Positions 4,605 through 6,805 of a stretch of DNA of 9,254 bases are shown here, in pieces. Made by a program: the position numbers and the translations under genes. Position 1 is the stretch's first letter; every line of letters starts with the position of its first letter. The DNA is taken from the IMG/VR virus record IMGVR_UViG_2585427737_000005; one strand, 5' to 3'. The stretch is from a virus (taxonomy: Duplodnaviria; Heunggongvirae; Uroviricota; Caudoviricetes). Below the pieces are notes generated by a model. That model made no database searches. It had not been told where the DNA came from and was given only the letters and a program-made list of their open reading frames with translations.

Positions 4605-4639
4605 TCAAAAAATGGAAAAACCCGCTCGACGGCGGGTTT
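4605..4639 (-). terminator. Rho-independent terminator candidate about 130 nt upstream of the holin (minus strand); weaker on plus strand
   Basis: Stem AAACCCGC / GCGGGTTT (4618-4625 and 4632-4639) with 6-nt loop. On the minus strand it is followed by UUUUUCCAUUUUUU. Confidence 0.55.
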
Positions 4640-5065
4640 AAGCTGTGTGACGAAGTAACCACTCTTAACAGCATAACCAATTTTTTACGTACGTAAACCA
4701 CTAAATGATATTTGCGAGAATGCTACCGAGTATTGAAAACACCACTACAAATACATAAGCAAATCTCAACAAATAACCAACAAATAATTTCCAGCGTTAT
4801 TTTTAGCTGGTTTAAATTGAATCTTCAAATTATAGAGCACTTATAAATAACAGCCATTAATATAAATTGGCTAATAGATTTATTTTTATTCAGCCAAGAG
4901 CCATGAATAGGATTCGATAGAAAAAGTTCAGATAAAAATAGAGATCTACTTCACAAATCAAATGAGAAACCAAAACTTACATCTTGAAATAATCACATTG
5001 ATTAGATGAATATTTATCGCGCAGTGACATCATTTTTTAATAATAGTTCAAAAAAAGGGCTCACG

Positions 5066-6148
5066 ATGAAAAAATTAACAGTGGCAATTTCTGCTGTAGC
5101 TGCATCAGTACTGATGGCGATGTCTGCTCAGGCAGCTGAAATTTATAATAAAGACAGTAACAAGCTGGATCTGTACGGGAAAGTTAATGCTAAGCACTAC
5201 TTCTCCTCTAATGATGCAGATGATGGTGATACTACTTATGCCCGTCTTGGCTTCAAAGGTGAAACCCAAATCAACGATCAACTGACTGGTTTCGGTCAGT
5301 GGGAATATGAATTCAAAGGCAACCGCGCTGAATCTCAAGGTTCCTCCAAAGATAAAACCCGTCTTGCCTTCGCTGGCCTGAAATTCGGTGACTACGGCTC
5401 CATCGATTATGGCCGTAACTACGGTGTAGCATACGATATTGGTGCATGGACCGACGTTCTGCCAGAATTCGGTGGCGATACCTGGACCCAAACAGATGTA
5501 TTCATGACTGGTCGCACCACAGGTGTTGCAACTTATCGTAACAATGACTTCTTTGGTCTGGTTGATGGTCTGAACTTTGCTGCTCAGTATCAGGGTAAAA
5601 ATGACCGCACTGACGTAACTGAAGCTAATGGTGATGGTTTCGGTTTCTCCACTACTTATGAGTATGAAGGATTCGGTGTAGGTGCAACCTATGCTAAATC
5701 TGACCGCACTAATAATCAGGTTATCTACGGTAACAACAGCCTGAATGCATCTGGTCAAAATGCTGAAGTATGGGCAGCTGGTCTGAAATATGATGCGAAC
5801 AACATCTATCTGGCTACCACCTATTCTGAAACCCAGAACATGACTGTTTTTGGTAATAACCATATTGCCAACAAAGCACAAAACTTCGAAGCTGTTGCAC
5901 AATATCAGTTCGACTTCGGCCTGCGTCCATCCGTTGCTTACCTGCATTCTAAAGGAAAAGACTTGGGTGTTTGGGGTGATCAGGACCTGGTTGAATATGT
6001 TGATGTAGGTGCAACCTATTACTTCAACAAAAATATGTCCACTTTTGTTGACTACAAAATCAACCTGATTGATAAGAGCGATTTCACGAAAGCATCTGGC
6101 GTTGCTACCGATGATATCGTTGCTGTAGGTATGGTTTACCAGTTCTAA
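5066..6148 (+). CDS. nmpC: Outer membrane porin NmpC/Lc (OmpC/OmpF/PhoE family), apparently intact
   Basis: 360-aa ORF from ATG 5066 ([23 protein letters not shown], signal peptide, then [17 protein letters not shown]...) ending in the porin C-terminal motif VYQF. AAAGGG Shine-Dalgarno 7 nt upstream. The track ORF (from 5006) includes a 20-codon upstream extension that is unlikely to be translated. Confidence 0.95.
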
Positions 6149-6310
6149 TTTGATTACTAAAAGATATGTTGTGGGAGGCTTTGCCTCCCCAACATATAAG
6201 TGGCTCCCTCAAGCCACTTCCTTTAGAAGCACAACCTTGCTTCTAACTATACAAACCTTCTGTTATATATTACCCTTTATTTTTGGGGGCGTTTCAACGC
6301 CCCATTTTTA
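6149..6310 (+). ncRNA. ipeX: Structured nmpC 3' UTR, IpeX-like regulatory RNA region
   Basis: Four stem-loops within about 160 nt after the nmpC stop (6164-6197, 6198-6219, 6222-6247, 6285-6303), the last followed by a T tract. IpeX was described as arising from the untranslated region between the nmpC stop and its terminator in DLP12 and PA-2. Identity rests on position and structure, not on sequence comparison. Confidence 0.4.
6285..6310 (+). terminator. Rho-independent terminator candidate for nmpC / 3' UTR transcript
   Basis: GGGGGCG-TTTCAA-CGCCCC stem-loop followed by ATTTTTA on the plus strand, lying between the convergent nmpC and quuD genes. Confidence 0.6.
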
Positions 6311-6336
6311 ATAACTTTTAGTAAATAATTGGCGTA

Positions 6337-6720
6337 TTAATTAGAGTTATTAACAACGATATCCATCTCTAACCGGATATCTAATGCCATTAACATCCCT
6401 TCAATTATGCCCTCAGCCTTCTGTAACCTTTTCCCGATATAACCATCAGAGCAGCAATGCTTACCTGCCAGTGACATGAATGTCATACCGACTACATAAT
6501 AATCTACTAATAAATCGTGCAAATCGCTGTTGTTCTTTTTCAGACGGGCCATGCACCCGCAAATGATCATCGCGTCATCGTCACAACATTGCGGGCGAGA
6601 TTTTACTTTTGAAGTAATTAATCCCTTAAAACCGGCGGCAATGGACGACCAGGTCACATCTTCATGATTATTAGCCGCCCACGCTCCCCAACGCTCAAGA
6701 ACCATCTGAATATCACGCAT
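6337..6720 (-). CDS. quuD: Late-gene antiterminator Q (QuuD-type, small Cys-rich Q)
   Basis: 127-aa ORF from ATG 6720 ([22 protein letters not shown]...) with GGAG Shine-Dalgarno 8 nt upstream. Cys clusters ([20 protein letters not shown]) suggest Zn binding. Product and position after rusA/ylcG match the DLP12 gene order from memory. Confidence 0.8.
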
Positions 6721-6805
6721 CAACTTACTCCACAAAAATCAGACCAGAACGCCAATTACAAGCAAAAATCAACAAAACAGTATTAGTTGATTGTTATCTC
6801 TGACT

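Follow-up and report, generated by a model that had tools for sequence, protein, structure and literature searches.

A hairpin-dense interval between convergent nmpC and Q genes corresponds to the IpeX RNA of the porin strand, with the late promoter on the far side of the porin gene

The window considered here is the whole 9,254-nucleotide stretch of IMG/VR virus record IMGVR_UViG_2585427737_000005 (Caudoviricetes), in which a Porin_1 reading frame on the plus strand, stopping at 6148, converges with a PF06530 Q reading frame on the minus strand, stopping at 6337 (open reading frame list and domain search). The gap between them is 188 bp, vs 189 bp between quuD and nmpC in prophage DLP12 of E. 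coli MG1655, and the holin, lysozyme and Rz genes lie further along from Q on the minus strand, at 4523-3302. As called mechanically, the porin reading frame begins at 5006 and spans 380 aa, with the porin domain present only from residue 49; the ATG at 5066 is the likely start of nmpC, since it is preceded by AAAGGGCUCACG with a Shine-Dalgarno-like AAGGG and yields a signal peptide of normal length. The mechanical Q frame begins at a TTG at 6735 and its stop codon occupies 6339-6337. The window carries an intact nmpC without IS5, while the K-12 copy is split by that element. The two flanking genes are:

5066-6148, plus strand: nmpC/lc-type porin gene (Porin_1, E 1e-152)
6337-6720, minus strand: Q antiterminator gene (PF06530, Q21/Q933W family), with a product of 127 aa when read from the ATG at 6720

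The interval between these genes, 6149-6336, folds into four local hairpins (RNAfold), here named H1 to H4:

6164-6197, plus strand: H1, a long hairpin of 15 bp with a one-base bulge (-22 kcal/mol)
6198-6219, plus strand: H2, with loop CCCUCA at 6206-6211 and four of its eight stem pairs changed on both sides among relatives
6223-6246, plus strand: H3, whose stem is swapped for other complementary sequences in the P7 and L160/L026 lineages
6286-6309, plus strand: H4 (hairpin 6286-6303, consensus scan) with its U tract, the intrinsic terminator of nmpC/IpeX

The original prediction had placed four stem-loops directly after the nmpC stop and proposed folding the transcript of each strand, and on both counts sequence, positions and RNAfold agree with it: minimum free energies are -67.5 kcal/mol (z -8.7 against dinucleotide shuffles) for the plus and -71.6 kcal/mol (z -9.1) for the minus strand, z thus being about -9 on both, and none of 200 shuffles folds as well on either strand. 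H4 consists of GGGGCGTTTCAACGCCCC followed by ATTTTTAATA and is called a plus-strand terminator by the consensus scan. It is one-directional, because on the minus strand the hairpin is followed by CAAAAAUAAAGGG. RepRanger tags ipeX as containing REP elements; we set this aside, as by eye the hairpins are unlike the canonical REP consensus.

The interval is the 3' UTR of nmpC/lc, that is, the already known IpeX RNA read on the plus strand, and its rediscovery here is routine, as this prophage sRNA is listed in textbooks. IpeX was reportedly described by Castillo-Keller, Vuong and Misra in 2006 as an RNA of the cryptic prophage DLP12 and of the lc 3' UTR of phage PA-2. It is a published 167-nt RNA of DLP12 that is processed from the porin transcript, and ipeX in multicopy has been reported to repress OmpC and OmpF. 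The feature in the window is:

6143-6310, plus strand: IpeX RNA (nmpC 3' UTR), 3' end placed by homology to K-12 Term-seq, 5' end presumptive

Of 5426 complete E. coli genomes, 2504 have this interval (90-100% identity), and in each it is flanked by quuD and a porin gene. It is 100% identical to the corresponding DNA of phages ev243 and PhiR70_1, 95-96% identical to that of K-12-derived strains such as MC1061, and 95.2% identical to the DNA downstream of lc in PA-2 (J02580). Published K-12 Term-seq data place nmpC-strand 3' ends at 574367/574366 and at 574476. By exact matching the first pair corresponds to window 6309/6310, 6-7 nt past the H4 stem, in agreement with the predicted role of the last hairpin as a plus-strand terminator, and the other corresponds to window 6200, 3 nt past H1, where a 3' end is as expected of a processing site or an exonuclease barrier. 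According to the K-12 Term-seq tables, read-through beyond H4 is terminated by Rho in antisense quuD. The presumed 5' end, at about 6143, adjoins the nmpC stop codon and comes solely from counting the published 167 nt back from 6309. The proposed match to the IpeX RNA of the nmpC 3' UTR is borne out by the shared locus, the identity to DLP12 and PA-2, and the mapped K-12 3' ends. Relative to these known examples, the window has the same flanks (quuD and nmpC), the same 188/189-bp gap and the same terminator, and differs by a few substitutions (in the H1 bulge and loop and in the H4 loop) and by one fewer A before H1; unlike K-12, its nmpC is intact, so that the RNA can come from the porin promoter as in PA-2. 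An Rfam search of the interval gave no match named IpeX and none at the gathering score, the hits at E<=10 being chance matches, and the MicF and MicC models did not match it either; Rfam 15 probably contains no IpeX model. The conserved, covarying four-hairpin structure, shared by lambdoid and P1-like phages, would be sufficient to build one.

We took nmpC 3' UTRs from viral contigs and examined the conservation of the hairpins in an alignment of nine sequences. Besides near-identical E. coli copies, these include two divergent lineages, namely the L026/L160 type and the type found in P1-like P7, of which L046 is a variant. The P7 porin gene adjoins ssb and lyz with no Q present, and still its 3' UTR, at ~70% identity, keeps the four hairpins, the CCCUCA loop, the terminator and, between H3 and H4, an unpaired block; the L026/L160-type UTRs likewise retain all four hairpins. 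Compensatory changes occur in the stems. For example, the outer 8 bp of H1 covary, with UA replaced by CG and by GC in the P7 type. Overall, 96.8% of the cells in the alignment are paired and 11 of 32 stem pairs are changed on both sides, a figure reached by none of 500 shuffles and falling to at most 2 when the partner is slid by 1-3 columns, with the caveat that these statistics rest on few events, in three to four independent UTR lineages. A scan of genome contigs with the pattern CTTCNTGTTATNTATTACC, which follows the P7 register only, returned 31 chance matches in unrelated taxa.

The substitutions also carry information about strand. There are 11 G-U cells in the plus-strand stems, representing about five or six independent events, vs a single C-A cell that favours the minus strand, and summed hairpin energies are -371.5 kcal/mol on the plus and -359.7 kcal/mol on the minus strand. 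A common E. coli variant in H3, in which A-U becomes G-U, pairs on the plus strand only. Judging by this wobble asymmetry, it is the porin-strand RNA whose structure is under selection, and the hairpins of the minus strand mirror it. The suggestion that the same DNA encodes structured RNAs on both strands is therefore not established: the hairpins accompany nmpC in the Q-less P7, and the wobble pairs favour the plus strand.

Between H3 and H4 lies a block that is predicted to be unpaired:

6254-6275, plus strand: conserved single-stranded block AACCUUCUGUUAUAUAUUACCC, nearly invariant across lineages, the proposed seed

The block is complementary to the translation-initiation regions of ompC and ompF. 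In duplex predictions with the 60-nt initiation regions of K-12 leaders, it forms 15 contiguous pairs with AUAUAACAGAGGGUU in the Shine-Dalgarno region of ompC, plus 9 pairs upstream, at -26.4 kcal/mol (z -5.6; equalled by none of 300 shuffles), and this duplex ranks 2nd among 619 background initiation regions, which were drawn from phage loci and not from the E. coli genome. With ompF the block pairs at GAGGGUAAUAAAUAA (-18.8 kcal/mol, rank 12 of 619), and its pairing with ompA is no better than background (-9.6 kcal/mol, rank 372 of 619). Complementarity to the leader of nmpC itself is weak (-12.5 kcal/mol, z -1.7, equalled by 18 of 300 shuffles). In the P7 and L160 lineages the block can still pair with both host porin mRNAs, and its match to ompF is perfect over 14-15 bp. 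In addition, the H2 loop CCCUCA, invariant across all lineages, complements UGAGGG, which is the Shine-Dalgarno sequence of ompF and also occurs within the ompC 5' UTR.

It is instructive to compare this block with known regulators of the same two porins. The predicted mode is like that of MicF and MicC, which pair across the Shine-Dalgarno/start-codon region of ompF and ompC, and the block and the MicF seed have TTATTTATTACC in common over 11-12 of 12 nt (TTAT(A/T)TATTACC, MicF nt 17-28). This shared seed, together with the complementarity, suggests ordinary anti-RBS pairing. There is no overall homology between IpeX and either MicF or MicC; IpeX comes from a 3' UTR rather than from its own gene and, unlike them, is a single RNA complementary to both porin mRNAs. 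In architecture it resembles the Hfq-type sRNAs derived from 3' UTRs, such as CpxQ, MicL, DapZ and SroC: these too come from the 3' end of an mRNA, keep its terminator as their 3' hairpin, and have a U-rich stretch and an unpaired seed. It differs from them in having three extra hairpins at its 5' side. Read on the minus strand, the block (reverse complement AAAUAAAGGGUAAUAUAUAACAGAAGGUU, 6254-6285) resembles the K-12 ompC leader (AAAUAAAGGCAUAUAACAGAGGGUU), and the seed may have arisen from an inverted fragment of a porin leader. On balance we favour a mode of action in which IpeX would work through an overlooked anti-RBS seed of 15-24 bp that resembles an inverted copy of the ompC leader. 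The abstract of the 2006 IpeX study is said to describe ipeX as not complementary to the ompC leader and its effect on ompC as independent of Hfq, and the Hfq requirement reportedly differs between ompC and ompF. A 2025 review is cautious in its wording, and the literature describes the mechanism as not simply complementarity-based. The predicted seed either conflicts with the published account of IpeX or was missed by it. Since it can base-pair with the ribosome-binding sites of ompC and ompF, the mechanism is open to a direct test.

On the minus strand, the original prediction drew attention to H1 followed by CUUUU some 150-180 nt past the Q stop, and likened this spacing to the arrangement of late promoter PR' and terminator tR' in lambda. 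The hairpin and tract are indeed there, at ~175 nt, where the sequence past H1 is CUUUUAGUAA, the complement of 6163-6154. The PR' homologue is found elsewhere. In 933W-type Stx phages, to whose Q the Q of the window is 78-81% identical, PR' follows Q directly, its start site has been mapped by dRNA-seq and Term-seq, and the PR'-to-tR' RNA is 258 nt long. From this published distance we placed the 933W promoter as TTTACG-16-TATCAT with +1 in TAAGAGTGG; the 933W module comprises this promoter and +1 region, then AGTGGTTACNTNGNCAC as conserved leader and AAACCCGCCG...CGGGTTTTT as terminator hairpin. The 933W leader motif TAAGAGTGGTTAC with its hairpin is absent from 6149-6336 and present at 4667-4618, and the 933W-type module aligns at 4716-4596 on the minus strand of the window:

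4607-4697, minus strand: late regulatory module, with -35 TTTACG at 4697-4692, -10 TATGCT at 4675-4670 and +1 A at 4663
4607-4697, minus strand: within this module, by homology to 933W, leader AGUGGUUACUUCGUCAC, terminator hairpin at 4639-4618, then UUCCAUUUUUU

The promoter has the form TTTACG-16-TATGCT, with its +1 A seven bases past TATGCT, and the module lies between nmpC and holin, ~130 nt upstream of the holin ATG (4478). An identical copy is found upstream of essD in K-12, and Q-dependent control of the DLP12 lysis genes has been attributed in the literature to the essD regulatory region. K-12 Cappable-seq (a list in U00096.2 coordinates, to which we added 777 for version 3) includes a Q-strand start site at v3 577229, which corresponds to window 4663, exactly the predicted +1, albeit a weak one (relative read score 1.7). 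The same list has no Q-strand start site in the quuD-nmpC gap, with the reservation that K-12 has a defective DLP12 with an IS5-split nmpC, so that its transcript maps stand in only imperfectly for those of the intact prophage of the window. The late motif lies beyond the porin gene in 88 of 89 loci of the window type with enough context, and in phiP27 the module is found 1.3 kb after Q, behind an inserted gene. Like the phages that make PR'-tR' leader RNAs (6S RNA in lambda, StxS in 933W and Sakai), the window thus possesses such a module, with a 933W-type +1 region and first leader hairpin; its leader is only ~50 nt long with one hairpin, and it is without the second, StxS-forming terminator of 933W.

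It follows from this layout that nmpC and IpeX form a moron, an accessory cassette complete in itself, which sits as an insert between Q and PR', and given such a cassette annotators should not assume that PR' and tR' come directly after Q. The four-hairpin module is also bracketed by a repeat:

6154-6324, either strand: 10-bp perfect inverted repeat, UUACUAAAAG at 6154-6163 and CUUUUAGUAA at 6315-6324 (arms also read as TTACTAAAAG and CTTTTAGTAA)

Pairing of the two arms over 10 bp is predicted in the RNAfold structure. The repeat could represent an end-to-end helix of the RNA, or the moron may have left it as a scar when it inserted; K-12 has an imperfect version of it, and P7 is predicted to have a different flanking pairing. 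The nmpC/IpeX locus is a frequent target of insertion sequences, as seen from the IS5 inside nmpC in K-12 and from a break in one copy on a viral contig (L064), which switches directly past the IpeX terminator to GGTAATGACTCCAACTTATTGATAGTGTTT, presumably an IS1 end. A strong K-12 Cappable-seq start site (v3 576858, relative read score 90) corresponds to window 5033 on the minus strand, opposite the plus-strand position 33 nt ahead of the nmpC start codon, and RNA from it would be antisense to the nmpC leader and promoter region, heading toward PR'.

We regard IpeX on the plus strand, combined with a moron between Q and PR', as the probable explanation of the locus as a whole. Under this model, transcripts from the porin promoter would pass through H1-H3 and end at the H4 terminator at about 6309/6310, and processing, as published for IpeX, would free a stable RNA with a 3' hairpin. 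The unpaired block would then pair with the ribosome-binding regions of host ompC and ompF, possibly assisted by the H2 loop, while H1-H3 would serve as structural and stability elements. As the nmpC leader is not complementary, such pairing would swap the host porins for the phage porin. On the opposite strand, PR', the initially transcribed pause region and the terminator would operate from beyond the inserted porin cassette.

Two other accounts of the plus strand deserve consideration. Highly expressed porin mRNAs often carry strong 3' hairpins, and the K-12 3' end 3 nt past H1 fits a barrier to 3' exonucleases, so that the hairpins might be only mRNA-stabilising structures and a terminator for nmpC, with no function in trans. 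We find this distinctly unlikely, as it is at odds with the reported repression of OmpC and OmpF by multicopy ipeX and leaves unexplained why the H2 loop and the unpaired block are both invariant and can both, in three lineages, pair with the ribosome-binding regions of ompC and ompF. The mechanical list of reading frames also contains one of 53 aa with a TTG start at 6150-6311 on the plus strand, and a small protein might be encoded there; we give this next to no probability. The frame begins right past the nmpC stop with no Shine-Dalgarno-like sequence seen ahead of it, and the lineages differ not codon-wise but by indels and compensatory stem changes, the P7 type having an 18-nt indel and several of 1-2 nt.

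The minus strand raises two further possibilities, both centred on the same feature:

6159-6197, minus strand: H1 as read on the Q strand followed by CUUUU, terminator-like, with no PR' before it

One is that a late promoter just after Q produces a short leader ending at H1, a tR' analogue comparable to lambda 6S RNA or StxS, which Q antiterminates for expression of the late genes. The strength of the hairpin, its position relative to the Q stop, and the presence of PR' directly behind Q in 933W-type phages all speak for it. This reading is nevertheless unsupported, since the required PR' would have to lie between Q and the hairpin and is instead located ~1.6 kb away, beyond nmpC, where the promoter, +1 and terminator homologues lie and a K-12 start site falls on that +1. 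On the minus strand of 6340-6200 no sigma-70 promoter rises above chance and K-12 has no start site; promoter-like matches in the gap number 4, vs 3.97 expected from shuffles. Given also that the hairpins travel with nmpC in the Q-less P7, that the wobble pairs favour the plus strand, and that phiP27 and ev245 show genes can insert between Q and the late promoter, a PR'-to-tR' arrangement directly after Q is very improbable. The other possibility, which is compatible with IpeX and the moron as described above, is that H1 on this strand is an ordinary intrinsic terminator, ending Q-strand transcripts before they run antisense into nmpC. Such transcripts would stem from read-through of the early operon or from a promoter inside Q, and would overlap the porin-strand RNA across the whole IpeX region. 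K-12 does have a start site inside quuD (v3 574183, window 6493, relative read score 9.3), RNA from which has to cross into the gap, and H1 is the sole candidate to stop it before nmpC, as H4 does not work as a terminator in this direction. The T-tail of H1 scores 2.03 in the window, 2.36 in K-12 and 2.63 in L160, similar to the 2.39 of the proven H4 on the plus strand. Moreover, a terminator inserted between quuD and nmpC in K-12 left IS5 transposition unchanged, which its authors ascribed to pre-existing intrinsic terminators, and the related phage ev245 has a canonical terminator ~100 nt past its Q. Against this, the two 933W leader hairpins score 4.7-4.9, the window barely exceeds the Q-less P7 context (1.91), and L026 is poor (1.6). 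The U tract has only 4 U and doubles as one arm of the flanking inverted repeat, the consensus pattern scan did not call H1 a terminator on this strand, and among the curated Term-seq ends of K-12 none falls on the Q strand of the gap, a weak negative given that the tables also miss the end of the PR' leader. Taken together, an ordinary terminator at H1 is possible, though we lean against it.

Were Q-strand RNA to arise from about 6493, or by read-through of the early operon, and to stop at H1, it would be fully antisense to IpeX. It is tempting to imagine such an RNA as a cis-antisense partner, a sponge or RNase III substrate, that would remove IpeX and silence nmpC at the lytic switch; we consider this unlikely, but if true, lysogenic conversion would be coupled to the lytic programme in the manner of an excludon. 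A further K-12 Q-strand start site, inside nmpC in antisense orientation, corresponds to window 6006 (minus strand, score 16.8).

Two promoter candidates in the gap were considered and rejected. TTGAAA-19-TAATAT (6297-6267) has a spacer of 19 and no associated start site, the number of such matches equals chance, and its TTGAAA hexamer varies among strains, being the H4 loop. The second, ATATAACAG, is shared with ev245 and might have been a Q-linked promoter; in the window it is part of the plus-strand seed block that is conserved in the Q-less P7. In ev245 itself, whose Q is 87% identical, the terminator after Q (L005, 2994-3024) consists of GCCAGCCTCCCCAAAGGCTGG plus eight T and closely resembles the StxS/tR' hairpin of 933W. 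The moron downstream of it is blc, not nmpC, and a PR'-like TTTACAATCGTAAAAA-TATGAT occurs ~1.85 kb further along (L165, about 2230-2260).

The -35 of PR' in the window sits in a perfect palindrome, TTTACGTACGTAAA, and TTTACGATCGTAAA takes its place in the 933W type. Where Q identity drops to ~50%, phages have other GC-rich, partly palindromic sequences there (around GCGGTCCGC in PhiR5_1 and GGAATTCC in phiP27), with an unchanged +1 region and hairpin. The palindromic element at the PR' -35 may be a candidate Q-binding site.
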